Below are positions 38,101 through 57,782 of a stretch of 64,000 nucleotides of DNA, one piece after another. The position numbers were made by a program, and so were the translations under genes. Every line of letters begins with the position of its first letter. Within the stretch, counting starts at the first letter, position 1. The stretch is from a virus. Location of the stretch: the IMG/VR virus record IMGVR_UViG_3300045988_167906; one strand, written 5' to 3'. The notes beneath the pieces were generated by a model that saw only the letters and a list, made by a program, of their open reading frames with translations, searched no databases and was not told the DNA's origin.

Positions 38101-39744
38101 ATGACACCTTATGAAGCATTGACTGCACAAGATAAGGAATATATTACTGAATATATTGAAACATGGGGTGGCGTTAATTCCCCAATTAAACTCAAAGCAT
38201 CTCTTGATTATATCCTTCGAGAATGGAATAAGAGTAAACAAACTCTATTTAATATTTTTGGCGAAAAGTTAATGTTGGAGAAGGAAATCCAGGTTGAAGA
38301 TGGAGATAACAAAAAAGTAAGAGAAGTTAATGAGTATCTCTATAGCACTAATCCTGGTATCAATTTTATTACAAATCTTTGTAGATTATTTGAATCTGAT
38401 ACTACTTATTTTGAAAATACTTATGCAACAAGGCATGCGATATATAATTTAACTCAAGCTTATCAACTTTTTACTAATAGAGTTGTTAAAGGATTTACTT
38501 ATCACAATAAAGATGGTAAAGTAGTTAAAGTTCCAGAAGGAGCTAAGGTAATGAAAGTTCTTCAGAAAATGGCTAAAGAATTTGATTTGCCTGATTTTGA
38601 AATTTTTCGCAATCATGTTTCACGTATTACTGAAGTACGTAAATCTAAAATTAAATTTACTTTATCTATTCATCCCTTGGATTATATGACTATGAGCGAT
38701 AATATAAATGGTTGGGAAAGTTGTATGAACTGGACTCAAGGGCCAGGCTCTTACCGTGCAGGCACTATTGAAATGATGAATAGTCCATTAGTTGTTGTAG
38801 CATATATTACTACTAAACCTTATTATCCAGCAAATACTTCAATTGAGTGGACTTCCAAAAGTTGGAGAGAATTGATTATTGTTCATCCAAAAGCTATTTG
38901 TTCTGTAAAATCTTATCCTTATTACAATATTGCATTTGATAAAGCTCTTGTTAATTGGCTTGCTAATTTGGTTGAAGAAAAAACTGAATGGCGTTATAAC
39001 AGAAAAAAGCCACAAGAAAGTTTAGATAGTTGTTCCTATATCGAAGCTTGGCAAGATAAAGAAGATAAGGATAATCGTTTCCTGTTGGATTTTGAAACAA
39101 ATGAAATGTATAATGATTTTGGTAATACAGAAAATTATGGAATTTTTTCAATTAATCCACCAGACAATAAATATCGTACATTCGCAATTAATTATTCTGG
39201 TTTAATGACTTGTATGTGTTGTGGCGAAAATGGTTATTGGTCTGATGACACTGAAATGGTGGTTTGTGAAGATTGTGATCCACCCACTTATTGTTATTGC
39301 TGTGGTGAACGAGTTAACGTAAATGATGCAATTGAAGTAGATGGTGAATGGATTTGTGAAGATTGTTATCATGATTTACATAGATGCTTATGTTGCGAGG
39401 ACGTTCATTTTGATGAAGATTTCACTCCCGTATTCATTGGACATATTGACAATCAAACTATTAATATTGATTATGATGAGCATTATATTTGTAATGAATG
39501 TCTTGCCAATAAAGAATATTTAAAGTATCTAGGAGATACTGATATTAGAGCTGAAACAATTCGATTGGATGGCGGTCCTTATTATGGTATGGTGGCTCTC
39601 TTAATTGAAGAAGATGATTTAAATGTAGAGGCTAAAAAGATAATTTCTAATGATCCTTATTCTACTATAATTACTGATTATACTTATGCTATTCGTCGTT
39701 ATCCTGAGCGTTTTTATAGTTACAATAAGTCAATTGCGATTTAA
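38101..39744 (+). CDS. paralog family C member 2
   Basis: SIHPLDYMTMSDN...WESCMNWTQG...YRAGTIEMMNSP plus CMCCGENGY...CEDCD zinc ribbons. Confidence 0.55.
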   Translation: MTPYEALTAQDKEYITEYIETWGGVNSPIKLKASLDYILREWNKSKQTLFNIFGEKLMLEKEIQVEDGDNKKVREVNEYLYSTNPGINFITNLCRLFESDTTYFENTYATRHAIYNLTQAYQLFTNRVVKGFTYHNKDGKVVKVPEGAKVMKVLQKMAKEFDLPDFEIFRNHVSRITEVRKSKIKFTLSIHPLDYMTMSDNINGWESCMNWTQGPGSYRAGTIEMMNSPLVVVAYITTKPYYPANTSIEWTSKSWRELIIVHPKAICSVKSYPYYNIAFDKALVNWLANLVEEKTEWRYNRKKPQESLDSCSYIEAWQDKEDKDNRFLLDFETNEMYNDFGNTENYGIFSINPPDNKYRTFAINYSGLMTCMCCGENGYWSDDTEMVVCEDCDPPTYCYCCGERVNVNDAIEVDGEWICEDCYHDLHRCLCCEDVHFDEDFTPVFIGHIDNQTINIDYDEHYICNECLANKEYLKYLGDTDIRAETIRLDGGPYYGMVALLIEEDDLNVEAKKIISNDPYSTIITDYTYAIRRYPERFYSYNKSIAI

Positions 39745-41259: not shown

Positions 41260-42258
41260 ATGGGTAAAAAAGTTTTAGTTCCTGATTTTACTGAAAATTG
41301 TAGAGGGCTTTTGGAAGGGCTATTCAAGATTAGTGAAGTAGGTCTTTTAAAAGCTCTTGGTGATTTTGTATCTAATAAATATTCTAATGTAGAAATTACA
41401 GAAGATTATGTATACGCTGAAGGCAATATTCCTGTAATGCTTATCGCACACGTAGATACTGTATTTAGACAGCCAATTCGTCAATTTACTTATAATGAGA
41501 AAAGAGCTGTTTATAAAGGCAAGGAAGGTCTTGGAGCAGACGATAGAGCAGGTGTTTTTGCGATTATTCAAATTTTGCGTAAGAAGTATAGACCTTATGT
41601 CCTTTTTACAACAGATGAAGAAATGGGCGGTTATGGTGCCCATATGTTCATTGAAGCACATCCAGTAGCCCCAGATATTAAATATATGATTGAGCTGGAT
41701 AGAGCTGGTGAAAAAGATTGTGTTTTCTATGAATGTGAAAATTTTACATTTGTAGATTATGTTGAAAGTTTTGGTTTTAGGCAAGCAATTGGATCATTTA
41801 CAGATATTAGTATTATTATGCCTGAATGGGAAATTGCCGGAGTAAATTTATCAGTTGGCTATCATCATGAACATACTCAAAATGAAGATTTACATATTAG
41901 AACATTGTATAATACAATTAATAAAGTATGTAAAATGCTTGATGATATCGAAAATGCAGATAAATATAAGTTTATTCCTAGTAAGGAATATCTTCAGTGG
42001 ATTACATTAACTAATAAATATCATATGCCTTATGATTTTGATGATGATAAACTTCTTAATTGTAGTTTTTGTAATCAGTTGTATTATGAGTGGGAAGATT
42101 TTCCTCTTGATATTGATGGAGTAAAAGTTCATGTATGTCCTGAATGTTTGGCCCTTGATCCTAATATTCATCAATGTGAAAAGTGCTATAATTTATTTTA
42201 TTCAAATAATATGAGAGAAAGAGTATGTGATAAATGTCGAGTCCCTGTTGTAATTTAA
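41260..42258 (+). CDS. M20/M28-family zinc metallopeptidase-like protein with C-terminal zinc-ribbon tail
   Basis: IAHVDTV, GADDRAGV, TTDEEMGG resemble M20 (ArgE/DapE/PepT) metal-binding motifs. C-terminal CxxC x4. Confidence 0.5.
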   Translation: MGKKVLVPDFTENCRGLLEGLFKISEVGLLKALGDFVSNKYSNVEITEDYVYAEGNIPVMLIAHVDTVFRQPIRQFTYNEKRAVYKGKEGLGADDRAGVFAIIQILRKKYRPYVLFTTDEEMGGYGAHMFIEAHPVAPDIKYMIELDRAGEKDCVFYECENFTFVDYVESFGFRQAIGSFTDISIIMPEWEIAGVNLSVGYHHEHTQNEDLHIRTLYNTINKVCKMLDDIENADKYKFIPSKEYLQWITLTNKYHMPYDFDDDKLLNCSFCNQLYYEWEDFPLDIDGVKVHVCPECLALDPNIHQCEKCYNLFYSNNMRERVCDKCRVPVVI

Positions 42259-42338
42259 ATGAAATTAAAGAACAAGTAAAGAAGGTTATTGCCTATTCAT
42301 AGGGGCTGGACATTAACCTTTTAAATATTGATAAATTA

Positions 42339-43664
42339 ATGAATGATTGGGAAGAGAATAAATGCAAATTTTATAGTAGGCTTCCTGGTAATAAATTAAT
42401 TTATCAAAGCCATACACCTATTACAATGTCTATTTCAGAAGATGATAAAAAAGCTGAATTAGATTGTTTTATTGATAATATTCGTTGGCGTTATGGCTTA
42501 TTTGAATTAAGAGATTTTGTTGAAAATAATAGAAAAAATTTTTATAATAATATTTTAAATGAAGATTATTCAATGAATAATGGAACTGTTATTCCAAAAG
42601 GAATGAAAATAATTAAAGCATTTAAATATTTTGTAGAAGATAAGGAAATTCTTACTGAAATACAAGATAAAGCTAGTATGCTTATTCAAAATACAAAAAT
42701 TAGTGGATATTTTTGTATGTCAGTTCATCCATTGGATTATCTTAGTTTGAGTGAAAATACACATAATTGGCGGTCATGCCATGCCCTTGATGGAGAATAC
42801 CGTGCTGGTAATTTATCTTATATGGCAGATAATTGTACAATTATATGCTATATTAAGAGTGAACATGATGCGGTTTTACCTAGATTCCCAGATGATGTAC
42901 CATGGGCAGATAAGAAGTGGCGTATGCTTCTTCATGTATCTGATGATGACACTATGGTTATTTCAGGTCGGCATTATCCTTATGAAAGTAAAGGATTGCA
43001 AGATTTTGCTCTTGAGTTATATGAAACATTTTTCGGGCAAGGATACCGTTTTACTGATTGGTGTCATGAAAAATATAATACATTTACAATAAATGATAAA
43101 ATCTTTTCTAATGATAGCCGTTTATTGCCTACTGGATATGTAATGACTCCAGATATTAAGGTTATTGTTGACCCAAAAAATCCTTTACATTACAATGACC
43201 CTCTTCATTCTACTGTATATGACTATTGGTTCAGTATTGCTTATAGTGAACCTTATTGGCATGAAGAAGGTATTCCGCAAGATAAATTAATTCTTCCAAG
43301 AACTCGTACCACTACTAAAGTTAATATAGGACATGATGTAAAATGCTGTATTTGTGGTAAAAATGATTGTGTTTTAACAGATACGATGCTTTGTATTGAT
43401 TGTGAACTTAAATATGGTACAGAAGAAACAGAAGATTTTACTTTCTGTAGAGAGTGCGGTAGACGTATTTATATTCCTGAAGCAATATCATTAGATGATG
43501 ATGATGGTTATGTATGTCGCAATTGCGGAGATAATTATTAGATATGTGATAATTGTAATATGTATTATGATAAAAAAGATTTAATTTATGATGAAGAAAA
43601 CAATGCTTACTACTGTGAAGCTTGTTATGATGAAATTTTATTTGATAGGGAGAATAATGAATAA
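42339..43664 (+). CDS. paralog family C member 3, extended through TAG 43539
   Basis: VHPLDYLSLSEN...W.SC...YRAG core. Read-through adds CDNCNMYY...CEACYDE, another CxxC pair like its paralogs. Confidence 0.55.
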
Positions 43665-43972
43665 TGGCAAAAGGTAGTATTGCTAAAGATGCTGTTGTAG
43701 AAAAAATTGCAGAAGCATTTGGCGAAGATTTCCTCGGATCTTATGATAAAAAGTATTATGTGCGAGCTAAAGAAAATGGACAATATATTCAGATTGCAAT
43801 TAGTCTGACTTGTCCAAAAACTCCAGTTGAATCTTTTGGTTCTATGGATTTTGGTAATAATGAACTTAATTTTGAAGATGGAGCAACAATTCAGCCTGCG
43901 AAAAAGGCTACAGAAATTAGTCCAGAAGAAGAAGAAAATTTAAAAGCTTTAATTGAAAAGCTTGGTTTGTAA
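43664..43972 (+). CDS. hypothetical protein (102 aa)
   Basis: Followed by terminator gagaaagtca/tgactttctc. Confidence 0.45.
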   Translation: MAKGSIAKDAVVEKIAEAFGEDFLGSYDKKYYVRAKENGQYIQIAISLTCPKTPVESFGSMDFGNNELNFEDGATIQPAKKATEISPEEEENLKALIEKLGL

Positions 43973-44079
43973 GAGAAAGTCAAATTGACTTTCTCTTATT
44001 TTTATGTTATAATTATTTATATAGGGCATATTATATTAATTAAATAATTAAATTTCTTATATAAGAAAGGAATAAAAAT

Positions 44080-44361
44080 ATGAAGAAGATTATAATTCCT
44101 CAAGAAGAAGTAAATTATCTTTAGAAATTAAATTATGAAATTGAAGCTAGAAAAAATTTATGTCAATTTTTAATTAGACAAAATATTAGAAATAAAGCTT
44201 TTGATGATTATCATAATGAGTATATAGAATTATTTGCTGAATATGAATTAGCTAAATTAGAATTAGAAAATAATTATATTAAACCAGTAATTGGAAATCA
44301 AACTTGTAATTGGAATTTAGATTTTTAGACAAACGAGGTAAATATTGATGTTATTTCCTAA
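44080..44361 (+). CDS. small protein (93 aa, two in-frame TAGs) preceding the radical-SAM gene
   Basis: RBS AAAGGAATAAAAATATG. Open to TAA only with TAG as sense. Confidence 0.4.
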
Positions 44362-45688
44362 GATAGTTAATATTCCTGAAGAATTTTCTGATTTTATAAG
44401 TCGTTTATATTCTAATGATTGCTTAAATTCTTAGGCTGTATTTACATTAACTTTTTAGGTTACAGATGATTGTTGTCTAAATTGTGTTTATTGTTATCAA
44501 GGACATAAAGGAAAACATAAATTATCCTTTAATACAGCTAAATAGATGATTGATTAGATACTAACAAGAGACAGTAAAGTTATTAATTATATTGACTCTT
44601 ATAAAATACCAGGAGTAGTAATAGAATTTATAGGTGGAGAGCCATTTTTAGAAATTGAATTAATTGATTAGATTACTGATTATTTTATTAATAAAATGAT
44701 TGAATTGCGGCATCCTTGGGCCACTAAATATAAAATTTCAATTAGTTCTAATGGTATTTTATATTTTGAACCAAAAGTACAAGAGTATATTAAAAAAAAT
44801 AATGAAAATTTAAGTTTATCAATTTCTATTGATGGAAATAAAAAATTACATGATGCTTGTAGAGTTTTCCCTGATGGTAGTGGTAGTTATGATAAAGCAT
44901 TGTCCGCCGCATTACATTATAGCCATAATTATAACAAATGGATCGGGAGTAAAATGACTATCTCTCCATTTAATATAGATTATTTATATGACGCTGTTTT
45001 AGAAATGATAAACAATGGTTATAGTCAAATCAATCTAAATTGTGTGTATGAAAAAGGTTGGGAACTTAACCATGCCACTACATTATATTATTAGTTAAAA
45101 AAAATTGCTGATTATTTATTAAATAATGATTTGTGGGATAAAGTTTATTTATCTATTTTTTATATTAATGATGGAAGTAAAAATTTATCTAATGATAATT
45201 GGTGCGGCGGGAATGGTCGTATGTTAGCCTTAAATTGGAAAGGTAAATATTATCCCTGTTTACGTTATATGGAAGATAGCATAAGTAATCAGCCAGAATA
45301 TTATATTGGAGATATTTATTAGGGAATAGGCCAAGATAATTTAACCATCAATAGATTAAAAGATTTATCTGAAATAACAGTTATTAGTCAATCTCCTCAA
45401 AAATGTTTAGATTGTGAAATTTCTGGAGGATGCTCTTGGTGTACAGCTTATAATTATCAAGAAACAGGTAATGTTAATAAAAGAGTTACTTATATTTGTG
45501 ATATGCATTATGCTATAGTTCTAGCTTCTTTATATTATTTAAATTCTATTTTAAAAAAAATAAACTCGAATAAACGATTTAAATTTAATGGAGATATGGA
45601 AAAAGCATTAAAAATTATCTCTTAGGATGAATATAATATAATAAAGGAGGCAATGACAAATGAAAATAGGCACGACAATAACTTCTGA
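44348..45688 (+). CDS. radical SAM / SPASM-domain peptide-modifying enzyme (anSME/sactisynthase-like) containing eight in-frame TAG codons
   Basis: DDCCLNCVYCYQ (CxxxCxxC), FIGGEPFL (GGE SAM motif), C-terminal CGGNGRMLALNWKGKYYPC...CLDCEISGGCSWC (SPASM). Listed ORFs 44696-45094 and 45131-45322 are two fragments of this single frame. Confidence 0.8.
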
Positions 45689-46310
45689 TAGATTCAATGA
45701 ATTAAAGAAAAAAATAAAGGCTGAATGTTTACGTCGTAAATATATAGGTAGTGTAAGTTCATATGGAGGGACTTCTTATGATTATACTACTTAGCCTAAT
45801 AATGGAAAAGTTATTTCAAAAGAACATATAACAAAACTGGTAGAACCTATGGCGGCAATAAATATTGAAAATCAGAATGAAAATATAAATGTTATTAAAG
45901 ATGATGATTTAAGTACATTAGAGGCAAAAATTACAGCTTATCAAGCTATGGGATTAACTGATTCGAATACTGGATGTTCAGCTTATTGCACTGGATTATG
46001 TTCTACTAGTTGTAGTGAAAGTTGTGGAGTACAATGTCAGGGAACTTGTTTAGGCAGTTGTAAGAATACTTGCCAAGGAGGCTGCCAAAACACTTGCAGA
46101 GGCGGATGTCGAAGCAGTTGTAGTGGCAGTTGTGATGGATGCAGTGGTTCTTGCTCAGGTGGATGCCAGACTGGGTGTAGCGGATGCAGCGGTAGCTGTA
46201 CAAGACATTGTGCTAACGATTGTACTGGATTGTGTGGAGGAAGTTGTTCTGGATTATGCACAAGTTGTACTGGCACATGTAGTGGAACTGGTAGGAATGA
46301 ACCATTATAA
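45660..46310 (+). CDS. RiPP-like precursor: ~105-aa leader plus ~110-aa core of 35 cysteines in (C-x3)/(C-x2) repeats; one in-frame TAG
   Basis: AGGAGG RBS then ATG 45660, in frame (through TAG 45792) with listed ORF 45849-46310. Core is CSAYCTGLCSTSCSESCGVQCQGTCLGSCKNTC..., ends TAA. Confidence 0.65.
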
Positions 46311-46428
46311 TTTAAAAACATTTATTGAAAATATATATAATTGTAAAATATATTATATGTATCTTATACAAAATAATATTTTATTTTGTATAAGTGATTA
46401 TAAAAATATAAACTTTCAAAAATATGAT

Positions 46429-46998
46429 ATGGATATTTAGATTTTATCTATTTATGAATATTTATTTCAAAAGTATATTTTACATAAAGATATATTAAAA
46501 CAATATAAAGGTATAGAATTATATAAAATTATGGAAATTCAAGATAAAATTTTTATTAATAGATATAAATTATTATTGTAGATTATTAATAATAATTATA
46601 ATTTTGATAATTAGTTAATATACACTGATTTTAATAATTTTAATTTTGAACAAAATATTAGTTATATAAATTATTGTTTAAAATTACTATTTAATAATTT
46701 TAAAAAAATAGATAAACAATTTTGGAAAATTTTAGATTAGATTTATTTTTTAATTAATGGTAAAACTAATTTATTTTTATTGTTGGGAAATTTTTATTTG
46801 AATAAAAGTAATTTATAGCAATTTACTGAAGAAATAAAAAAAATTCCTGGAATTAAAGAATAGCTCTCTTTTAGTTATACAGCTTTAAATTTAGCTATTG
46901 AAATTGATAAAGTTGCAGAAAATAAAAATTATCTTAATGAATTAATTGAAATTATTGATAATCATTCACAAGAAAAAATTTATAAATTTGATATTTAA
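46429..46998 (+). CDS. hypothetical protein (189 aa) with six in-frame TAGs in extremely AT-rich DNA
   Basis: A 570-nt frame free of TAA/TGA despite ~85 percent AT. Ends TAA. Confidence 0.45.
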
Positions 46999-47267
46999 TA
47001 AAAATTAATATATAATATATATACAAAATAAAGAAAATAAAGACTTTAACAGCAAAGAAATGGACAGTAAATCCGTCGCGAATGCTACGCAGGTTCGAAT
47101 CCTGCCCTCCCCACCACTATATGGCGGAGGTAGGGAAGCGGTTAAACCCAGCGGAACCAAACCAAATAAGTCTTGTTTGAATAAAATAATTATTTGATTT
47201 TTAATAAAAAATATTATATAATATTTATATGAAAAGAGAAAGGCTTTTACAGCAACTTAAACTTTTT

Positions 47268-47342
47268 TCCGTGGTCGAATAACTGGATAATTCATCAGAG
47301 TTAATTCTGAAAATAAGGATTCAAATTCCTTCCTTGGAGCCA
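47268..47342 (+). tRNA. tRNA-like gene with non-canonical 6-8 nt anticodon loop centred on TTAA; CCA encoded
   Basis: Acceptor tccgtgg/ccttgga (6 of 7), D stem gaat/attc, anticodon stem tcaga/tctga with loop gttaat, T arm aagga-ttcaaat-tcctt, discriminator G plus CCA. Late promoter directly upstream. Confidence 0.4.
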
Positions 47343-47433: not shown

Positions 47434-47582
47434 GCTCTCGTAGCTCAATTGGTCAGAGCCGGCGACTTATCCAAAATTAGTTTAAATGGTAAAATAGTTT
47501 ATGCGCAAGAAAGATGTAAGTTCAAATCTAACATTTTGGGCCAAATCGCCAGATGTGGGTTCAAATCCCGACGGGAGCACCA
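47434..47582 (+). tRNA. tRNA interrupted by a ~78-nt insertion after the anticodon loop; the insertion itself has tRNA-like ends (ccaaaat...attttgg-g-cca, 47471-47543)
   Basis: Outer acceptor gctctcg/cgggagc plus A plus CCA, D arm gctc-aattggtca-gagc, anticodon stem ggcga/tcgcc split by the insert, T arm with ttcaaat. Confidence 0.4.
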
Positions 47583-49529: not shown

Positions 49530-49606
49530 CTCATTTGTATGGGACAGTAGCTTACGAGGTCGGAGCATTGGTCTGAAAAACCAAAGGATGGAGGCTCGAT
49601 ACCTCC
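49530..49606 (+). tRNA. tRNA-Phe (GAA)
   Basis: Acceptor gggacag/ctgtccc, anticodon loop ctGAAaa, CCA encoded. Late promoter motif at 49480-49515. Confidence 0.8.
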
Positions 49607-49616
49607 CTGTCCCACC

Positions 49617-49690
49617 AATTGGTCTTACACATGGGGTTTCCGATTTGAACTAGGCAGATTAGTCACCTGCCGTTGGCAATAGACCAATTA
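49617..49690 (+). ncRNA. structured RNA candidate bounded by an 8-bp inverted repeat (attggtct / agaccaat) with internal hairpin ggcag-attagtcac-ctgcc
   Basis: No ORF. Co-transcribed position inside the tRNA array. Confidence 0.25.
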
Positions 49691-49835
49691 AAAATAAACT
49701 GAGGCAAAGGGAAATCGGGTAGTTATGATGAACTTCATAATGAAATCCTCTTGTAATCAAGCTAATTGGGAGAGAGGTAGCACGGGAACGGGGAGAAGCG
49801 TGCTATAAAAGGTGAAATACTTCTTTCCACCATAA

Positions 49836-49900
49836 GCCGGTGTAGCCGAATGGCATAGGCGAATGGAATTGAACTGAAAATTTTTTGGTTCAATTCCATT
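49836..49900 (+). pseudogene. 5' part of a tRNA gene (acceptor gccggtg, D arm gcc-gaatggcata-ggc, then a 13-bp perfect hairpin) whose 3' part lies at 50773-50800
   Basis: gccggtg pairs with caccggt of the downstream T-arm/acceptor/CCA fragment. The HNH ORF lies between them. Confidence 0.35.
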
Positions 49901-49947
49901 AATGAATAATTTTTAATTTCTAATATATTATGAAAGGAGAGATTGTT

Positions 49948-50760
49948 ATGGCTCGTTCAGATATTTTAGAAAAAGAAAAAGAAATTCGTTAGTGGATAAA
50001 CGAAGAAAAATCTAAACGTTATATATGTGAATAGTTGCATTGTAAACCTGAAACTTTAAATTCTTATTTGGAGAAAATGAATATTGAATATAAGGGATAG
50101 CCTTATAAAAAAGGATAGAATAAAAATCCTCGATGTTATAAGCCAGCTATTTATTATATTGATAATCATAAGTATATTAGCTCTTCTGTTTTAAGACAAA
50201 AATTAGTAAAAGATGGATTGAAAAAAGACAAATGTGAAATTTGTGGTATTTCTATGTGGCAAGGAATTAAATTACCTTTAGAATTACATCATAAAAATGG
50301 AAACCATTTTGATAATGATTTAAATAATCTACAAATTTTATGTCCTAATTGTCATTCAATTCAAAATGGAAATAGTGGAGCAAATATCGGTAAATACGCG
50401 GGATTGCTGGAATAGGTAGACAACTCATCTTTAGACGGTGAGGCCGACAGGTGTGAGGGTCCGAGTCCCTCATCCCGCACCAATCATATTCAAAAGAAAA
50501 ATTATTGTTGTGATTGTGGAAAAGAGATATGTTTAAAAGCTATTAGATGTAAATCTTGTGCATCTAAATTTAGACAAAATTCTAAATCTCCAGATAGAGA
50601 AATTTTAAAAGAATTAATTAGAACTACACCATTTGTAACTATAGGGAAAATGTATGAAGTTTCTGATAATGCTGTCAGAAAATGGTGTAAAAATTATGAT
50701 TTACCTTATTAGTCATTAAAAATTAAAAAAATTTCTGATGAAGATTGGAAAAATATTTAA
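49948..50760 (+). CDS. HNH homing endonuclease with N- and C-terminal HTH-like domains; six in-frame TAGs
   Basis: CEICG...ELHHKNGNHFDNDLNNLQILCPNCH is an HNH motif. A single 813-nt frame runs from the AAAGGAG RBS through six TAGs to TAA. Listed ORF 50218-50415 is an internal fragment. Confidence 0.65.
50398..50482 (+). other. tRNA-like element (gcgggat...atcccgc-A-CCA, T arm gaggg-tccgagt-ccctc) embedded in frame inside the HNH ORF
   Basis: A 7-bp perfect acceptor pairing, T arm and CCA are all present. D and anticodon arms do not fold. Confidence 0.3.
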
Positions 50761-50772
50761 TATATAAGGTGT

Positions 50773-50800
50773 GAAGGTTCGAATCCTTTCACCGGTACCA
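50773..50800 (+). pseudogene. 3' tRNA fragment (T arm gaagg-ttcgaat-ccttt, acceptor caccggt, A, CCA) immediately after the HNH gene
   Basis: See 49836-49900. Confidence 0.4.
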
Positions 50801-51293
50801 ACAGTGAAGTAGTAGCTATACTCATTATAATCAAGGCTCGGTGGTTGGTGGCTCCATCGTTATGTAAATAAGCCATATGTATATTACTTCTTGGTGTAAT
50901 GGAAGCATACTGCCTGAAAGAGGCGGAGGTATTGGTTCGATCCCGATAGAAGGAGTAATTAAAGCTAGGAAATGATAATCGCCTAAATAAATAAAGGATT
51001 ATTATTAAAGGTTATTTAGATTAAGGAAGCGGTTGAAGTTATTACTTACTTGATTATAAAATAACATGACCGCAAGACGAGTGTTTGAAGCTTGTCTATA
51101 AACAAATTCTTCATATGTTGTCTTTTTATACTTTCTCTTTGGTTGTTTCTTGACATATAAGTAAAAACGGAAAGGGAGTTAAAGGTTTAGCTATAAAACC
51201 GGTTTGTTTTTAATAAGATTTTTAAAATTAGGTGACAAAATCTTATTTGAGTGACGCTGCTCAGGAGGGTCCGGAACCTCTGAAATGCGATAT

Positions 51294-51370
51294 GCGGTTG
51301 TAGCTCAGTTGGTAGCAGCATTTGCCTTTTAAGCAAAGGGTCGGGAGTTCGAGCCTCCCCAACCGCACCA
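51294..51370 (+). tRNA. tRNA-Lys (TTT)
   Basis: Acceptor gcggttg/caaccgc, anticodon loop ctTTTaa, T arm gggag-ttcgagc-ctccc, CCA encoded. Confidence 0.8.
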
Positions 51371-51740
51371 GGTCAAGTTTGAGAAATTTCATAAAGCATC
51401 GCTGACGTTAAATGGCACTTATATGAAAACGCGTAAGTAATATAAGATAGCAAAATTCTCGTAGTTCATCCTATTAGAGAATCTTAAAGAGTAATGGCAA
51501 GGTCATATCGCGGGAGACCGTGCGTATGAGATACCAATAAAGGTAGCACATCTTGTGTTGAACAAGATAAAAGATGGAAAGGATACCTGCCATACTTGGA
51601 CGGTAAAAGAAGGCGTTGAATGTAATCGAAAAATATTCCGTTGGTTCTTAGGGGAGCGACGTAACAGTGAAACCCGAGGTTTGAGTTACCTTGTCCAAAC
51701 GCTATGTATAGTCAAAGTCTAGGCAACAAGGTTTTAATTT

Positions 51741-51817
51741 GCGGGATTAGCTCAGCTGGTTAGAGCGTTTGGTTTACACCCAAGAGGTCATTGGTTCAAA
51801 TCCAATATTCCGCACCA
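51741..51817 (+). tRNA. tRNA-Val (TAC) copy 1
   Basis: gcgggat/attccgc, loop ttTACac, T arm attgg-ttcaaat-ccaat, CCA encoded. Confidence 0.85.
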
Positions 51818-51820
51818 TAA

Positions 51821-51858
51821 GCAGGGCAACGCGGGTTCGATCCCCGCCTGGCGCACCA
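51821..51858 (+). other. tRNA 3'-half-like element (T arm gcggg-ttcgatc-cccgc, acceptor ctggcgc, A, CCA) with no matching 5' half
   Basis: Directly abuts tRNA-Val copy 1. Confidence 0.4.
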
Positions 51859-52064
51859 TTTGAGTTAAAAAGTATAAATCTTATAAACTCCCTGTAAAAT
51901 CAGGCGGACAGATGGACCGATAGTACCATTATTGTGGAAGTCAGGCAGGTCCATTTTACTGGGCTTACTGTAAAAGCCAGTTTAATACACCCTCCATACC
52001 CAATGAGGAATTTTTATAAAGGTCTATTTAATTTTTCTTGGTAGTTTAGTTAAATAGACTGTAT

Positions 52065-52141
52065 GCGGGATTAGCTCAGTTGGTTAGAGCGTTTGGTTTA
52101 CACCCAAGAGGTCATTGGTTCGAATCCAATATCCTGCACCA
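52065..52141 (+). tRNA. tRNA-Val (TAC) copy 2
   Basis: Near-identical to copy 1 (three substitutions). Confidence 0.85.
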
Positions 52142-52206
52142 ATAAATTTGAAAATTTAAAAAAAATATTATATAATATATATATAATAATAAAGGAGATA
52201 TTTGAA

Positions 52207-52374
52207 ATGGCAACTACTAAGAAACCTGCAATTAAAATGGACAGCACAGAGTTGAACGAGTATCTTCTGTTCCGCCGTCGTAGATCAATTGTGCCTGCCA
52301 AGAAAGGTAAGGGCATGGAATATGATAGAGCGAAGGAAAAAGAAAAATCTGAAAAAATGATTTCTGATGAATAA
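52207..52374 (+). CDS. small basic protein (55 aa)
   Basis: Late promoter 52150-52190, RBS AAGGAG. Confidence 0.4.
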   Translation: MATTKKPAIKMDSTELNEYLLFRRRRSIVPAKKGKGMEYDRAKEKEKSEKMISDE

Positions 52375-52378
52375 ATAT

Positions 52379-52451
52379 GCTCCCATCGACAAGTGGTCTA
52401 AGTCACCAGCCTTTCACGCTGGAGTCGCCGGTTCAAATCCGGCTGGGAGTA
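52379..52451 (+). tRNA. tRNA-Glu (TTC)
   Basis: gctccca/tgggagt, 3-bp D stem, loop ctTTCac, T arm gccgg-ttcaaat-ccggc. No encoded CCA. Confidence 0.7.
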
Positions 52452-52535
52452 GAGATACAAATTCTACAACCTTCACGCGGTGTATCTTGTTTTAACTAAT
52501 GTAGAATAAAGTAAATAAAAAGGAGCTGTTTAATT

Positions 52536-53159
52536 ATGGCATACATTTATTAGATTATTAATGATATAAATTAGAAAATTTATGTTGGTAAAACTGAATT
52601 TTCTATTGAAAAACGTTTTAAAGAACATTGTAAAGATGCTTTTAGAGAGCGCAATGAAAAACGTCCATTATATTCAGCAATGCGAAAATATGGAGTAGAA
52701 CATTTTCATATTGAACTAATTGAAGAAACTGATGATGCTAATAATCGAGAAACTTATTGGATTGAAAAATTAGGTTCTTTTAAATGGGGATATAATGCTA
52801 CAATAGGCGGAGATGGTAAAAAGTATCTTGATTATGATTTAATTATTGCTTCTTATCAAGAAATTAAAAATATTGAAGAAACTGCTCGTAAATTAGGAAT
52901 TTCTTCTGATAGTGTAGAAAGAATTCTTAAAGAAAAAAAAGAAAAAATTTATTCTCAACAAGAAGTTAATTTAGTTAAATCAGGTAAAAAAGTTGCTCAA
53001 TGTGATAAAAAAACTGGAAAAATTTTAAATATATTTCCATCTATTGGAAGTGCAGGTAGAGCTATTAATAAACCTGATATTACTCATATAAGCGCTGTAT
53101 GTTTAGGTAAAAGACAAAGTGCTTATGGTTATAAATGGAAATTTATTGAAAATAATTAA
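52536..53159 (+). CDS. GIY-YIG homing endonuclease (I-TevI/Seg-like) with two in-frame TAGs
   Basis: MAYIY(TAG)IINDIN(TAG)KIYVGKTEFSIEKRFKEH matches the I-TevI N-terminus GIYQIKNTLNNKVYVGSA...KRWKRH, with the first TAG falling on the Q of GIYQI. C-terminal ...AYGYKWKF tail. Confidence 0.75.
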
Positions 53160-53173
53160 AATTATTCTTATAT

Positions 53174-53250
53174 GGTGCTATAGTTCAGTTGGCTAGAATG
53201 TCGGACTGTCTCTCCGAAGGTCAGGGGTTCGAGTCCCCTTAGCATCGCCA
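53174..53250 (+). tRNA. tRNA-Asp (GTC)
   Basis: D arm tagttcagttggctagaat as in bacterial tRNA-Asp, loop ctGTCtc, T arm agggg-ttcgagt-cccct, CCA encoded. Confidence 0.75.
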
Positions 53251-53282
53251 TTCGTTTTCTCGATATAAGCGATTTTGTTACA

Positions 53283-53345
53283 TAGAACTTGATAGAGCGT
53301 TCTATTAATCTGGTTAGATTAAGTTTTATAACTATCATATTTGGG
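53283..53345 (+). repeat. ~65-bp double-hairpin element (tagaac...gttcta; ttaatct...agattaa), repeated at 54432-54510
   Basis: Two near-identical copies, each immediately upstream of a tRNA. Confidence 0.5.
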
Positions 53346-53418
53346 GCACGGGACTGCATGGAGTGGTCGTCTCCCTTGCAAGGAGAAAAGCAGATGAGTT
53401 CGATTCTCATGTGTTCCA
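53343..53418 (+). tRNA. tRNA-Ala (TGC), with G3:U70
   Basis: ggggcac/gtgttcc gives a G3:U70 pair, anticodon arm tctcc-ctTGCaa-ggaga, T arm atgag-ttcgatt-ctcat. No CCA. Confidence 0.55.
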
Positions 53419-53557
53419 GTCATCTAAGATCCACAACCGCCACGAGGTAGATGATGGGTAATGCTAATAGTGGACAAAAATAAAAATCGGGCAAAGTTAA
53501 TTAAACTCCTCAAAAATTTTGCTAAATATAATAGAAGGAAAAAAGGAGTTGAATTAA

Positions 53558-54190
53558 ATGCCTAGAAAATTAACTCAAGAAGAATTTGAACAAAGAGTTT
53601 ATAAATGTGTAGGGGATAAATATTTTGTTATAAGTGAATATAAAGGAAAATCTAAACCAATAGATTTAAAATGCAATATTCATGATATTGTTTTTCAAGC
53701 ATCCGCAGAATGTTTTATGCGAGGTCCAAAAGAAGTAAGATGCTCTTGCCCTAAATGTTCAGAAGAAAAGAAAAATGAAAAATTTTCTGCAAATAGAACT
53801 GAATTAGAATGTGCTTATTGTGGAAAGAAATTTATTCGTCCAAATTCTAAATTGAATAATTCAAAAAGTGGAATATATTTTTGCTGTAGAGAACATAAAG
53901 ATTTAGCTCAACGGATAGAGTTTGGTTTGAAAGAAATTCAACCAAATCATTATGGAAATAATATTGAAAGTATATATACTTATCGTAAAAATGCTTTTAA
54001 ATATTATCCTCATAAATGTGCTATCTGTGGTTGGGATGAAGATAAAGATATTTTAGAAGTTCATCATATTAATGAAAATAGAGAACACAATGAATTAGAG
54101 AATTTAATCATATTATGTCCTATTTGTCATAAAAAATTAACTTCTCATAAATATAAATTAATTAATAGGGAAAAAATTATTTCTTATTAA
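53558..54190 (+). CDS. HNH homing endonuclease
   Basis: C-terminal CAICGWDEDKDILEVHHINENREHNELENLIILCPICH. Confidence 0.7.
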   Translation: MPRKLTQEEFEQRVYKCVGDKYFVISEYKGKSKPIDLKCNIHDIVFQASAECFMRGPKEVRCSCPKCSEEKKNEKFSANRTELECAYCGKKFIRPNSKLNNSKSGIYFCCREHKDLAQRIEFGLKEIQPNHYGNNIESIYTYRKNAFKYYPHKCAICGWDEDKDILEVHHINENREHNELENLIILCPICHKKLTSHKYKLINREKIISY

Positions 54191-54213
54191 TTTATGAAAA
54201 ATTTATAATATTT

Positions 54214-54256
54214 GGAGCTTGAGGCAAAGCGAGTTCGACTCTCGCAAGTTCCACCA
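54214..54256 (+). other. tRNA minihelix (acceptor ggagctt/aagttcc, T arm gcgag-ttcgact-ctcgc, A, CCA) lacking D and anticodon arms
   Basis: 43 nt. Folds as an acceptor/T coaxial stack only. Confidence 0.4.
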
Positions 54257-54328
54257 TTAAGTGTGATATATTCCAAACACGTAGGGTGGTAAGCACACGG
54301 GTTTTCTAGAAGCCTTCCCTATGAATAT

Positions 54329-54404
54329 GGATGCATAGCTCAGTTGGTAGAGCAATTGACTGTTAATCAATGGGTCGGAGGATCATACCCTTCTGCATCC
54401 GCCA
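54329..54404 (+). tRNA. tRNA-Asn (GTT)
   Basis: ggatgca/tgcatcc, loop ctGTTaa, CCA encoded. Confidence 0.8.
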
Positions 54405-54508
54405 CCGCACTCGCGGAAAACATACAACTCAACTGGTGCATAGAACTTGATGGAGCGTTCTATTAGTCTGATGCCTGCATTAGATTAAGTTTTATAACCA
54501 TCATATTT

Positions 54509-54582
54509 GGGGACATAGTTTATGGTAGGAAAACGTTGAATTTAATTCAAAGTCGAGGGTGCGATTCCCTCTGGCTCCACCA
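54509..54582 (+). tRNA. type-I tRNA with anticodon loop aT-TTA-At (anticodon UUA); nonsense-suppressor candidate
   Basis: Acceptor ggggaca/tggctcc (6 of 7), D arm gttt-atggtagga-aaac, anticodon stem tga(a)/(t)tca, T arm gaggg-tgcgatt-ccctc, discriminator A, CCA encoded. Confidence 0.5.
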
Positions 54583-54716
54583 TTTATGAAAGACAATACA
54601 GCAATTATAAATTTGCTTTGGGAGCCGTGTGTTGTAGGTTCGAGTCCTACTGTCTGGTTGAAGATCGGATATAGCGTAATTGGTAGCGCAACGTATAAAA
54701 ATTGTCTTGTTAATAT

Positions 54717-54792
54717 TGCGGGATCGTCAAGTGGTTAAGACACCAGCCTCATAAACTGGTTATCGTGGGTTCGAATCCCACTCCCGCAACCA
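54717..54792 (+). tRNA. tRNA-Met/fMet/Ile2 (CAT)
   Basis: tgcggga/tcccgca, anticodon loop ctCATaa, T arm gtggg-ttcgaat-cccac, CCA encoded. Preceded by a degenerate 5' tRNA half at 54665-54716. Confidence 0.65.
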
Positions 54793-54916
54793 TATGAAAA
54801 GCCCACACAGCAATTTTTAATAAGGTTAAATAAGAAATTCTGCAAAAATTTTTTAGAGTTGGTTCAAATCCAGCAAATGATTTTAGGGCTTTGTTAAAAT
54901 TGTTAAGGAGAAAATA

Positions 54917-55102
54917 ATGAAGTTCAATCCAGGAGATAAGGTCTGGTGTAAGAAGTATGGCAAGGGTAAGTGCCGCAAGACTGATGATAAGGACAATTTC
55001 ATGACTTATCTTTTCAGATTTTATGATGGTACTCTGATTTGGATGCCAAAACGTCAGGCTGAACATTTTGTAAGAGTTCGTTCCACCGAGGCCACGGTGT
55101 GA
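54917..55102 (+). CDS. hypothetical small protein (61 aa)
   Basis: RBS AAGGAG. Confidence 0.4.
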   Translation: MKFNPGDKVWCKKYGKGKCRKTDDKDNFMTYLFRFYDGTLIWMPKRQAEHFVRVRSTEATV

Positions 55103-55261
55103 ATATAAAGTCCGGTTATAGGAAATCCTGTCATTAGGCGGCAGGCTACCGGTAATCCTTTCTTATATATTTAAATATGTAAGGAACAAAAACTATACAA
55201 TAGATAGAGTTTTTACGCCTTGGCGCAATGCTTGTTTTTTACTATCTATTTTTTTATATTC

Positions 55262-55348
55262 GGAGTCGTGGGATAATGGTATTCCAATGGATTGCTAATC
55301 CATCCTACCTCTTGGGTAGTCCGCGTTCGAGTCGCGGCGATTCCGCCA
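55262..55348 (+). tRNA. tRNA-Ser (GCT), type II
   Basis: ggagtcg/cgattcc, 3-bp D stem, loop ttGCTaa, long variable arm ctacc-tctt-gggtag, T arm ccgcg-ttcgagt-cgcgg, CCA encoded. Confidence 0.8.
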
Positions 55349-55354
55349 TTATAT

Positions 55355-55442
55355 GTAGGAGTGCCAGAGTGGTCGATTGGGTTAGTCTCCAAAACTAATT
55401 GTAGCTGCACATCCAGGGTTCGAATCCCTTGCTCCTATGCCA
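55355..55442 (+). tRNA. type-II tRNA (Ser/Leu-like architecture) with apparent anticodon CCA
   Basis: Acceptor pairing, 3-bp D stem, anticodon arm ttagt-ctCCAaa-actaa, ~15-nt variable arm, T arm with ttcgaat, CCA present. Confidence 0.5.
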
Positions 55443-56167: not shown

Positions 56168-57229
56168 ATGGCTGAAATTATTAAGTTAAGACGCGGTAAA
56201 TCAACTAGTTGGTCTAAAAAGAATATAGTCCTGGCAGCTGGTGAAATCGGCGTAGAACTTAATACACATTAGATTAAAGTCGGCGATGGTTCAACCCCTT
56301 GGAATGAACTATCTTATGTAGGCGGAACTAAAGTTGTTAATGTTCAAGAATACACTGATAATCCAGCAGTTGTAGATGGCGTGCCTTATCAATCTATTGA
56401 TGTAGCATTTATGAAGGCTCCAGCAGGAAGTACAATTCGTCTTAATGCTAACTTTGATAACAGTGTTTCTATTGATAAAGCATTGACTATTGAATTAAAT
56501 GGTAATGATATTATTAATAATGAAAAAACTCCAATAGATATCAAAGCAAACGGCGATTTAACTATTAAGGGCCAAGGTACTATTGAATGTAATAAGAATG
56601 AAAATGCCGCAGTTTTTAATAATGGTAATATTACTATTAATAATGGTAAATTACAACGTACTACTGATGTATCAGGTAATGGTTATTATACTGCTGTTAA
56701 TCATGGCACTATGACAATCAATGGCGGCATGTTTATGAGTGGTGGCGAATTTTCCAGTATGATTGAAAATGGCTATTGGGATTATCACGCTGGTAATACT
56801 ACTAATGGCTATGTTCAAGGTCAAAATGCTGAAGCACCTACATTAACTATTAATGATGGTACATTTGCTGGCGGTTTATATGCTATAAAAAATGACGATA
56901 ATGCTATTTTAAATATTAATGGCGGCACATTCTATAATACTATTCTTGCTAATGGTAAGTCAATGACTATCACTGATGGGTATTTTGAAAATAGTAAGCC
57001 AAGTCAAGGCGAATATAATTTTTATCTTCGTAAATTAAGTGAAGATTTAAATCCTCAAAATACATATATTAGTGGCGGTACATTTATTACTGCACAAGAT
57101 AAGAATTTCAAGGTTGAGGGCGATCCTCATATTGAAATTAGTGGTGGTCGTTTTAATAGAGAATTAGATCCTTCTTATTTGGCTCCTGGCTATAGACAAA
57201 TACTTGTCAATGGCTTCTATACTGTCTAG
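56168..57229 (+). CDS. tailspike / tail-fibre protein with right-handed beta-helix repeats; TAG at 56279
   Basis: N-terminal anchor MAEIIKLRRGKSTSWSKKN...LNTH(TAG)IKVGDGSTPWNELSYVGG shared with 57245, 57783, 61719 and 63467. Downstream N-x-x-G / INGG repeats. Confidence 0.65.
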
Positions 57230-57244
57230 AAGGAGGAATAATCT

Positions 57245-57760
57245 ATGGCTGATATCATCAAGTTCAAAAGAGGTCGATCAACTACATGGCGCGAAAAAAA
57301 CTTATTACTTAAGGATGGCGAACCTGGATTTGAATTAGATACTCATAAACTGAAAATTGGTGATGGTAAAACCTTATGGAATGATTTACCATATATCGGT
57401 GGCGAAAGTGGTACAATTGATCTTCCTGATAATGTAATGGAATTTTTAGGCACAGTTGATACACTTCCAGCTACTGCTGAAGATGGAGAAATGTGTATTT
57501 ATGATGGTAAATTATATATTTATGATGGTAAATGGACAACTACAGAAACTTCTTCTTCAGCACAAAATTCTTTCAATTCTTTAGTAGATGCAATTAACTA
57601 TATCACTTAGCATAATTGTGTTGGTCAAATTGTATCTATCTTTTAGAATAATAAATGGTTGCCTTATATTGTAGATGTAAATAATGATCTTGTACCTATT
57701 CAATATGGAGAAGATAGTTATAATATTCTCAATGGCGGCGACGCAAATACTCTTAATTAA
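57245..57760 (+). CDS. tail-fibre protein (short), extended through two TAGs
   Basis: MADIIKFKRGRSTTWREKN...LKIGDGKTLWNDLPYIGG. Read-through restores C-terminal ...LNGGDANTLN, matching ...LNGGNASTLI at the end of 59028-61670. Confidence 0.6.
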
Positions 57761-57782
57761 TTTTATAGGAGGAAAATGATTT

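Follow-up and report, generated by a model that had tools for sequence, protein, structure and literature searches.

The closest described relatives of the phage cassette examined here belong to the CXXX-repeat system, which appears to have been present in curated databases since about 2011. The system is defined by comparative genomics and comprises a Cys-repeat target (TIGR04114; Pfam PF27846), an enzyme annotated as 'radical SAM peptide maturase, CXXX-repeat target family' (NCBIfam TIGR04115), and a 'CXXX repeat peptide modification system protein' (CXXX_rpt_assoc; NCBIfam TIGR04116). In all that time, it seems, neither its product nor its chemistry or biological role has become known, and the searchable literature contains no published biochemistry or role for it. 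Among characterised enzymes, PapB forms six thioethers in repeated CXXXD motifs (PMC12373016). For a periodic Cys substrate, this enzyme, with one thioether per CXXXD unit, offers the closest precedent in mechanism.

Here, we describe a cassette of this kind in a 64,000-nucleotide (nt) stretch of phage DNA, IMG/VR virus record IMGVR_UViG_3300045988_167906 (hereafter the window). All positions refer to the whole window, and TAG is read as a sense codon (Gln). Read in this way, the cassette consists of four overlapping genes on the + strand, and these overlaps fit a single operon. To judge from its profile matches, it is a phage-borne, TAG-as-Gln member of the CXXX-repeat radical S-adenosylmethionine (SAM; rSAM for the radical enzymes) system, with three conserved parts (a small partner protein, an rSAM/SPASM enzyme, and a Cys-repeat protein) and one lineage-specific gene. 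The same matches mark it as a genuine member of a known curated family, and not as a new class of system. An earlier note on this DNA had proposed a three-gene unit. The three overlapping + strand open reading frames (ORFs) are present and together contain 11 sense TAGs, but a fourth gene had been missed.

The largest and most diverse branch of the CXXX-repeat system is phage-borne, with substrates that contain 18–98 Cys and with a usual home in the tail-fibre region. Measured against the searchable literature, several features of this branch appear undescribed. These are the dominance of phages and prophages, the folded N-terminal domain (N-domain) of the substrate, the diverged partner, the tail-module home, the fusions to adsorption domains, the recoded and relocated copy, and an analogue in SPN3US-like phages. 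The lesson of the window itself is more modest: a large gut phage carries a recoded, probably late-expressed member of a known family.

The radical SAM/SPASM enzyme and TAG recoding

The second gene of the cassette (44348..45688) is preceded by GAGG before its ATG and overlaps the next gene by 29 nt. It encodes a protein of 446 amino acids (aa) with eight sense TAGs. This protein scores 426.6 bits against TIGR04115, where the cutoff is 350, and covers positions 3–359 of the 359 in the profile. It also matches phrog_1802 (E 8e-64). There are 3,103 database homologues at E 1e-10 or better, and JGI and NCBI already label homologues of the enzyme with the family name. The motifs that the earlier note had recognised are there: CxxxCxxC for the rSAM cluster (C42/C46/C49; nt 44471-44494), GGE (G96-G97-E98), and a SPASM domain, whose seven cysteines are C286, C304, C353, C356, C362, C365, and C384 (nt 45203-45499). 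All of these residues are invariant in an alignment of 18 sequences. The SPASM layout is C286-x13-G-x4-C304, C353-x2-C-x5-C-x2-C365, C384, in which the fourth spacing is x2 as opposed to the usual x3. One homologue, P0051 (768 aa; 56% identical), carries the intein domains Hint_2, Intein_splicing, and LAGLIDADG_3.

The enzyme falls below the NCBIfam cutoffs of the sactipeptide, ranthipeptide, and SCIFF maturase families. Its scores are 159.9 bits for PapB (cutoff 340), 106.6 for SCIFF (425), 98.7 for CcpM (500), 81.3 for QhpD (453), 65.2 for anSME (349), and 57.2 for RumMC (720). The best solved relative is CteB (5WGG; E 1.3e-33), with residues 24–395 of the enzyme aligned to residues 91–446 of CteB. 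CteB has an N-terminal recognition element (RRE) of the type found with peptides that are made by the ribosome and modified after translation (RiPPs). The window enzyme lacks this element, as the alignment begins at CteB residue 91 and the core motif starts at residue 42. The nearest characterised relatives are thioether-forming peptide maturases, namely the PapB family, the SCIFF maturase, and CteB, and relatedness to these and to QhpD suggests that the chemistry is of the thioether type. The cassette had previously been read as bearing the signature of sactipeptide- or ranthipeptide-type thioether RiPPs. The kinship to thioether formers agrees with that reading, but the cutoffs of those families are not reached, and the cassette maps to TIGR04114/04115/04116.

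Under translation table 11, the enzyme is split among ORFs of 132, 63, and 40 aa, and an internal Met becomes the start of the Cys-rich ORF. A cassette read with code 11 would be invisible to gene callers, as had been claimed, but full-length translations do exist in public catalogues. These include P0001, a full-length recoded protein that is 99% identical to the enzyme, and the gene calls of the near-identical relative L001. At three of the eight TAG positions in the enzyme, Gln is the commonest residue among 58 standard-code homologues (35/58, 22/58, and 42/58, against a Gln background of 3.3%). The related locus L004 has CAA at five of the eight positions, and L009 has CAG at one. Reading TAG as Gln, in a code 15-like recoding, is well supported by these comparisons for the window phage.

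The density of TAG differs along the window. The + strand ORFs of the first 22 kb have no in-frame TAG at all, and tail-fibre genes of the Mtd_N type have 0.6–1.4 TAG per 100 codons. Three of the four cassette genes reach 1.8–2.2 per 100 codons. This is the highest density among credible genes of the window, and with that qualification the statement made before holds. Recoded codons are reported to concentrate in late genes. The pattern of TAG density fits this concentration, which suggests that the cassette is expressed late in infection.

The Cys-repeat protein and its partner

The third gene (45660..46310) begins with an ATG that has AGGAGG 11 nt on its 5' side, and it overlaps the next gene by 14 nt. 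The encoded protein has 216 aa and is divided into three parts: an N-terminal domain of ~105 aa (residues 1–105; 45660..45974), which contains the only sense TAG of the gene at codon 45; the Cys-repeat region (residues 106–207; 45975..46280); and a C-terminal tail, SGTGRNEPL, which is followed by the TAA stop (46281..46310). There are 28 Cys in the whole protein and 27 in the repeat, the first of which is residue 106; the count of 35 given earlier was too high. The near-perfect C-x3 periodicity is real, with 23 of 26 Cys–Cys intervals being C-x3 and three being C-x2. When the same residues were shuffled 200,000 times, C-x3 intervals averaged 2.8 per shuffle and never exceeded 11. The Cys region contains no tandem repeat at the DNA level. 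The periodicity is therefore maintained at the protein level, and slippage of the DNA, considered as its source, does not explain it.

The protein scores 21 bits against TIGR04114 (cutoff 20) and matches phrog_6085 (E 2e-7), while no tail PHROG is matched. The near-identical copy in L001 carries PF27846 (tSAM_targ_Cxxx_rpt). Among 1.84 billion representatives, the N-domain family includes 527 representative clusters at E 1e-3 or better, and the domain is recognisable in 107 loci. A Cys run is present in 92 of 100 full-length members, and the eight exceptions are frame-shifted, truncated, or chimeric. In a structural model of the homologue P0124, the N-domain consists of four helices, with a predicted local distance difference test score (pLDDT) of about 90 over residues 10–100. 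The earlier description of this region as a ~105-aa leader gives its length correctly, but the homologue model shows a confidently folded domain. Likewise, the 'giant' precursor, presented as exceptional, is the norm for the phage branch, where as many as 98 Cys occur.

Across the family, the array almost always opens with C-x3-C-(T/S)-G-(L/M)-C (CSAYCTGLC in the window), and it often ends with C-(F/Y)-G. The x positions of the C-x3 units are rich in Ser, Thr, and Gly, and x2 is Gly in 41% of cases. These features bear on what the enzyme might do. The array could instead be a metal-binding, iron–sulfur-binding or disulfide-rich domain, with the rSAM enzyme responsible for another modification, such as epimerisation, anSME-like oxidation of Cys, or C–C (cyclophane) bond formation. 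SPASM enzymes catalyse many reactions, the weaker NCBIfam matches of this one include cyclophane formers and PqqE-like families besides anSME, and no acceptor residue is conserved in the repeat. As a lead only, Cys-x3 units with a Gly-rich x2 presumably resemble metal-binding repeats. We nevertheless consider such an explanation quite unlikely. The strongest matches outside the enzyme's own family are thioether formers (PapB at 160 bits, SCIFF at 107, and CcpM at 99, as compared with 65 for anSME), CteB is the best solved relative, and Cys is the sole invariant residue of the repeat, which fits a role as the reacting donor.

Some members of the family have additional domains. In P0250, a domain of ~210 aa lies between the N-domain and the array (phrog_5499, 2e-14; phrog_1330, 2e-12; CBM_4_9, weak). 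This domain resembles phage host-range/adsorption and tail proteins, and the P0250 gene lies directly after a tail-fibre gene. L082, L055, and P0189 have an extra globular C-terminal domain of ~190 aa, which has no match in PHROG or NCBIfam, none in Pfam for the homologue P0189, and none by tblastn in cultured phages. In a temperate phage, a 334-aa ORF (P0191; positions 6001-7005 of L171) fuses the Cys-repeat protein to the small partner, and this fusion sits between Baseplate_J/Mu_Gp48 and the rSAM gene. In some prophage loci, the substrate is split in two (L049, 6316-7644; L110, 5843-7527): a 176-aa N-domain protein with 18 Cys and a conserved GSGCTT end is followed, within ~10 nt, by a leaderless protein of 64–96 Cys.

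The small partner is encoded by the first gene of the cassette (44080..44361; 14-nt overlap with the enzyme gene) and has 93 aa, with sense TAGs at codons 15 and 83. It has no direct match in NCBIfam or Pfam, and the hidden Markov model (HMM) of TIGR04116 does not detect it even at E up to 1. The ~100-aa proteins that stand beside the enzyme in bacterial loci score 61–81 bits on the same model. When 27 phage small proteins were aligned by hhalign with a TIGR04116-type profile, the match had a probability of 95.1% (E 3e-8) over 92 columns, and the two groups have in common a C-terminal W-x-(I/L)-D-(F/Y)-x-T-x-E motif. To judge from this profile similarity, the small partner is probably a distant relative of TIGR04116. 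In 87 loci, the gene directly upstream of the rSAM gene encodes a homologue of it. That this small protein acts as a partner in the system is suggested by its constant place beside the enzyme, by the remote homology to TIGR04116, and by its natural fusion to the substrate.

In a model of the homologue P0330 (pLDDT 93), a single beta strand is combined with a helical hairpin and a beta hairpin. An RRE/PqqD-like fold, which the earlier note had raised for either this protein or the N-terminus of the enzyme, finds no signal in the 93-aa protein by sequence. For the small-protein family, there is no PqqD signal in Pfam (27 members) or against PDB sequences, and the confident P0330 model shows no such fold. 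An RRE/PqqD identity for the 93-aa protein was accordingly rejected.

The fourth gene (46297..46998; six sense TAGs; no overlap with a next gene) encodes a 233-aa product without a match in Pfam or PHROG. The gene is also called in L001 and L002. Its relatives are confined to the closest lineage, being found in L001, L002, L009, and L010, and weakly in L003/L004.

Locus architectures and a possible virion role

Pattern scans confirm more than 1,000 relatives, both in IMG/VR (at least 495) and among species-representative genomes (at least 560). Of 169 loci reached through the rSAM gene, 156 have a Cys-repeat ORF beside it on the same strand. Look-ups that began from the Cys-repeat protein place the rSAM gene 0–3 genes away in all five informative cases, and conservation of the Cys-repeat ORF without the enzyme, which the earlier note had named as a refuting outcome, was not seen among them. 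The small partner is present in the same five, as a separate gene of ~93–101 aa directly upstream of the rSAM gene in four of them and as the fusion in L171. Enzyme and substrate are coupled in both directions.

A neighbourhood survey, dereplicated to 90 groups and with all neighbours clustered, reveals two layouts. In the bacterial layout, the enzyme is 36–41% identical and is accompanied by one to three peptides of 52–67 aa, which have a leader of ~16–24 aa, 8–13 Cys, and often a GPG tail. A classical TIGR04116 protein is encoded downstream of the enzyme, and an ABC transporter and an S8 protease are nearby. In the phage/prophage layout, the enzyme is 42–67% identical, the target combines the ~105-aa N-domain with 18–98 Cys, and the small partner lies directly upstream of the enzyme. 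The neighbours here include baseplate wedge (phrog_120), gpJ-like (phrog_6), gpI-like (phrog_1160/48), and endolysin genes, as well as tail-fibre genes (phrog_2163, 1780, and 26419).

The contrast between the two is evident when loci are divided into long and short forms by a simple classifier. Baseplate or tail-fibre genes occur within 8 kb in 27 of 43 long-form loci and in none of 12 short-form loci. Conversely, an ABC transporter or S8 protease is found in one of 43 long-form loci and in 10 of 12 short-form loci, and classical TIGR04116 in 0/43 and 9/12, respectively. The window cassette belongs to the long-form phage/prophage class, but as a separate, TAG-rich operon.

Individual loci illustrate the tail-module setting. 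In L171, the order according to Pfam is tape measure, LysM, Sheath_initiator, Baseplate_J, Mu_Gp48, a 216-aa protein, the cassette, a GH25 lysin, and an integrase. In L172 and L173, precomputed Pfam calls place the cassette next to PhageMin_Tail genes. Phages of the L082 type (~60 kb) have a siphovirus-type order of Dit, minor tail protein, a 792-aa fibre-like protein, and the cassette. The median gaps between the cassette and its neighbours are 4 and 6 nt, and the strand is the same as that of the neighbour in 48 of 56 cases upstream and 45 of 55 downstream. The GC content of the enzyme gene tracks its flanks across a range of 0.26–0.64, with a median difference of -0.01. In packing, strand, and GC content, the cassettes look unlike a recently acquired moron. 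Proteins of ~215–225 aa stand beside the Cys-repeat gene in several long-form loci, among them L134 (9103-9780) and L122 (6514-7158); a GS...DxD motif of the nucleotidyltransferase type can be seen in them by eye, and a PHROG scan gave no match.

Our preferred reading, which we hold tentatively and at slightly less than even confidence, is that the cassette makes an rSAM-crosslinked protein that is retained intact and is probably associated with the virion. It draws on the location of long-form loci beside baseplate and tail-fibre genes, without an exporter or protease; on an N-domain that folds confidently in its model and occurs almost only with Cys arrays; and on the addition, in some members, of an adsorption-type domain or a ~190-aa C-terminal globular domain. 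Late expression counts in the same direction, since the cassette is TAG-rich like the tail-fibre genes and TAG is absent from the first 22 kb.

Under this proposal, the operon would be translated late in infection, once TAG is decoded. The small partner, the enzyme, or both would recognise the N-domain and the conserved CxxxCTGLC motif with which the array begins. By means of its rSAM cluster and a pair of auxiliary clusters, the enzyme would then introduce many intramolecular crosslinks of the thioether type, from Cys sulfur to carbon, along the 27-Cys array, by analogy with the action of PapB and CteB on shorter peptides. The product would be neither exported nor trimmed. It would form a stapled rod, resistant to proteases and redox conditions, that is borne by a folded domain. 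Its most likely place would be on the virion, either associated with the tail fibres or in the manner of an adhesin. A more specific version, possible but in our view doubtful, holds that long-form Cys-repeat proteins are themselves virion fibres or adhesins, with a single-chain shaft that is stapled by dozens of rSAM thioethers during assembly.

The two layouts also bear on the view, taken in the earlier note, that this is a classical leader-cleaved RiPP cassette. On that view, the N-domain would be a long leader, removed by an M28 peptidase or a host protease after crosslinking, and a thioether-rich core of ~110 aa would be released at lysis, where it could act in a bacteriocin-like or signalling manner to the benefit of the phage or lysogen. 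The bacterial members do show the layout of a secreted RiPP, with short leaders, multi-copy precursors of 52–67 aa, an ABC transporter, and an S8 protease. Moreover, the relatives of the enzyme all act on leader-bearing peptides, the N-domain occurs only with Cys arrays, and the window cassette is a self-contained operon. An M28 peptidase is encoded two genes upstream in both the window and L004, and in L006 a C39-like peptidase is encoded two genes downstream. However, just one of the 43 phage-type loci has an exporter or protease, and no double-glycine or other conserved cleavage motif is found at the junction between N-domain and array. Some members carry large extra folded domains or the partner fusion, and the cassettes match their flanks in GC content and are packed into late tail operons instead of being set apart like a moron. 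Heavy use of TAG would also exclude expression from a lysogen that lacks a suppressor. Since the relatives lie in tail modules with neither an exporter nor a leader protease, and since the 'leader' folds confidently as a domain in its model, a cleaved RiPP is not the best-supported reading, and we regard it as unlikely.

Several considerations weigh against the preferred reading of an intact, virion-associated product. The crosslinking chemistry is a prediction from relatedness, and no acidic or other candidate acceptor is conserved at the x positions. In the P0124 model, the array itself has a pLDDT below 50. The N-domain does not occur on other types of fibre, with the single exception of the chimera P0275, and both this domain and the ~190-aa C-terminal domain match no known fibre fold or family. 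The N-domain may be nothing more than a long leader for recognition, like those of NHLP/Nif11 precursors. Cargo genes (morons) classically occupy the slot between tail-fibre and lysis genes, so that synteny alone does not prove a structural role, and the searched literature offers no virion proteome evidence for Cys-repeat proteins. Finally, the window copy lies outside the tail module, behind a terminator and a promoter-like site and ~10 kb from the Mtd_N fibre genes, among neighbours that are non-structural (a metallophosphatase, the M28 peptidase, and a DNA methylase). Standing apart from the tail genes, with terminator- and promoter-like signals to itself, this copy weakens the structural reading.

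This placement raises a further alternative, that the product is an intracellular effector of late infection (for example, a thiol/redox sink, an anti-defence decoy, or a scaffold) that is not packaged into particles and does not leave the cell as a bioactive peptide. The non-structural setting beside a DNA methylase and a tRNA array would suit such a role, as would a product without a signal peptide and loci without an exporter. We consider it very unlikely: nothing indicates a specific intracellular target, and placement in tail modules across many unrelated phage lineages would be hard to explain.

The signals that delimit the window cassette lie just 5' of its first gene. A terminator-like hairpin with a 14-bp stem and a T run (43969..43999, + strand) ends the upstream gene, 43664-43972. 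It overlaps a promoter-like site (43985..44013, + strand) that consists of TTGACT, a 17-nt spacer, and TATAAT with a TG extension, and has 11 of 12 matches; such sites are not enriched in the region (34 found, 34.9 expected), and this one is to be taken as a consensus match only. With the hairpin and this site just upstream of 44080, the four genes look like one separate operon. No record near-identical to the window was found among deposited phage genomes.

Two other genes of the window had been thought to supply cofactor and leader removal. The SAM synthetase at 23461 is real, with Pfam N, M, and C domains (23461-25584). The peptidase at 41260 is real too, but it is an M28 enzyme (31.4 bits), M20, the family named before, being below threshold. 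Co-occurrence of either with the cassette is limited to the closest lineage, and a functional link to the M28 peptidase or MetK is unsupported. The SAM synthetase is interrupted, between its central and C-terminal domains, by an intein-like insert of ~320 aa, which begins C-VNGDTEFL, ends FITGN|C, and has no intein HMM match at E 0.001 or better. The M28 peptidase is flanked by paralogous proteins of 476–547 aa (38101-39744 and 42234-43664) that have C-terminal, zinc-ribbon-like CxxC clusters and belong to phrog_18912, of unknown function; both proteins are conserved in L004. In L001, a weak RlaP match lies ~9 kb upstream of the cassette.

Further downstream, three consecutive genes (56168-59003) each begin with an Mtd_N (major tropism determinant N-terminal) domain, and are likely to be tail fibres of a kind that diversity-generating retroelements target. 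The cassette itself adjoins the DNA methylase and the tRNA array. This array (49541-55442) has 14 tRNA genes, including two for tRNA-Val(TAC), two for tRNA-Phe, and one for tRNA-Trp. No tRNA with a CUA anticodon is present among the 14 tRNAs found by ARAGORN or the extra tRNA-like elements of the 64-kb window, with ~124 kb of the ~188-kb genome lying outside it. Just 3' of the cassette, at 47434-47582, is a tRNA-Trp(CCA) with a 73-nt insertion in the anticodon loop (Rfam, 42.7 bits), which ARAGORN detects only when introns are allowed. Two tRNA-like genes (47268-47342 and 54509-54579) have anticodon loops shortened to 6 and 5 nt that contain TTA, and are neither standard decoders nor CUA suppressors. 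A 3' piece resembling transfer-messenger RNA (tmRNA), with T arm, acceptor strand, and ACCA, occupies 47040-47170 (14.7 bits, below the gathering score of 47). A G-rich stretch, which could be a 5' acceptor strand, comes after it, and the whole is possibly a gene for tmRNA or tRNA in permuted or degenerate form.

Comparison with known systems

If the enzyme adds one crosslink per repeat, few known ribosomal products would be as heavily crosslinked as its own, and the system would offer a natural route to protease- and redox-proof rods of use for the stapling of peptides and proteins. If the product is on the virion, radical SAM chemistry would join phage assembly and host recognition in the gut. 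Stapled virion fibres would then make up a new class of phage structural protein, one that is crosslinked by an enzyme. The class would be widespread in gut Bacillota phages and would occur also in recoded phages of ~188 kb, with a distant echo in cultured SPN3US-like jumbo phages. The system is testable, as cultured lysogens with the cassette are available in Desnuesiella massiliensis mt10 (L094), Neglectibacter timonensis SN17 (L100), and Anaerobacterium chartisolvens DSM 27016 (L123).

The likeness to the catalogued CXXX-repeat system extends to all three conserved parts: the enzyme is above the cutoff of TIGR04115, the target reaches TIGR04114, and the partner appears related at the profile level. 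The differences are equally specific. The window target is a 216-aa protein with a folded domain of ~105 aa, and not a peptide of 52–67 aa. Its partner is below the HMM threshold of TIGR04116 and is encoded upstream of the enzyme instead of downstream. In addition, the window cassette has no ABC transporter or S8 protease, is borne by a phage, and uses TAG for Gln.

PapB/PapA (freyrasin, a ranthipeptide) and CteB/SCIFF belong to the same superfamily branch, with which the window enzyme also shares a full seven-Cys SPASM domain. However, the enzyme is far below both cutoffs and lacks an N-terminal RRE, and its substrate, longer by a factor of 5 to 15, offers no Asp, Glu, or Thr acceptor at regular intervals.

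The closest counterparts are the long-form cassettes in tail modules of phages and prophages from Oscillospiraceae, Lachnospiraceae, and Clostridia (IMG/VR and GTDB loci L005-L138 and L170-L173), which are without a name in the searchable literature. They have in common with the window the N-domain, the CTGLC opening of the array, and a small partner directly upstream of an rSAM gene whose product is 42–67% identical. These relatives lie between baseplate/tail-fibre genes and a lysin and use the standard code, whereas the window copy is a detached operon in a recoded phage of ~188 kb, with an extra gene for a 233-aa protein.

More distant similarity is found in the Salmonella jumbo phage SPN3US, where gp102 and gp103 (with relatives in Erwinia, Salmonella, and Cronobacter phages; phrog_1802) are paired rSAM genes, and where the phage rSAM/SPASM protein gp103 has TIGR04115 as its best NCBIfam match. 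Tandem Cys-x3 proteins of 130–134 aa are encoded just upstream of the rSAM pair, and the neighbours include genes for a virion structural protein and for a DUF4376 protein. On the complement strand at 143191-144220 of SPN3US (NC_027402.1; L175), three tandem Cys-x3 ORFs of 130, 134, and 68 aa are found (143828-144220, 143413-143817, and 143191-143397, respectively); they are absent from the RefSeq annotation, in which a 111-aa ORF in a different frame is called over the second. SPN3US gp103 scores 125.6 bits on TIGR04115, below the cutoff, and is 26% identical to the window enzyme. The N-terminal region of the Cys-x3 proteins, of ~50 aa, is different, and a second rSAM protein takes the place of the small partner. 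By these matches, the SPN3US locus is a cultured, distant analogue of the cassette.

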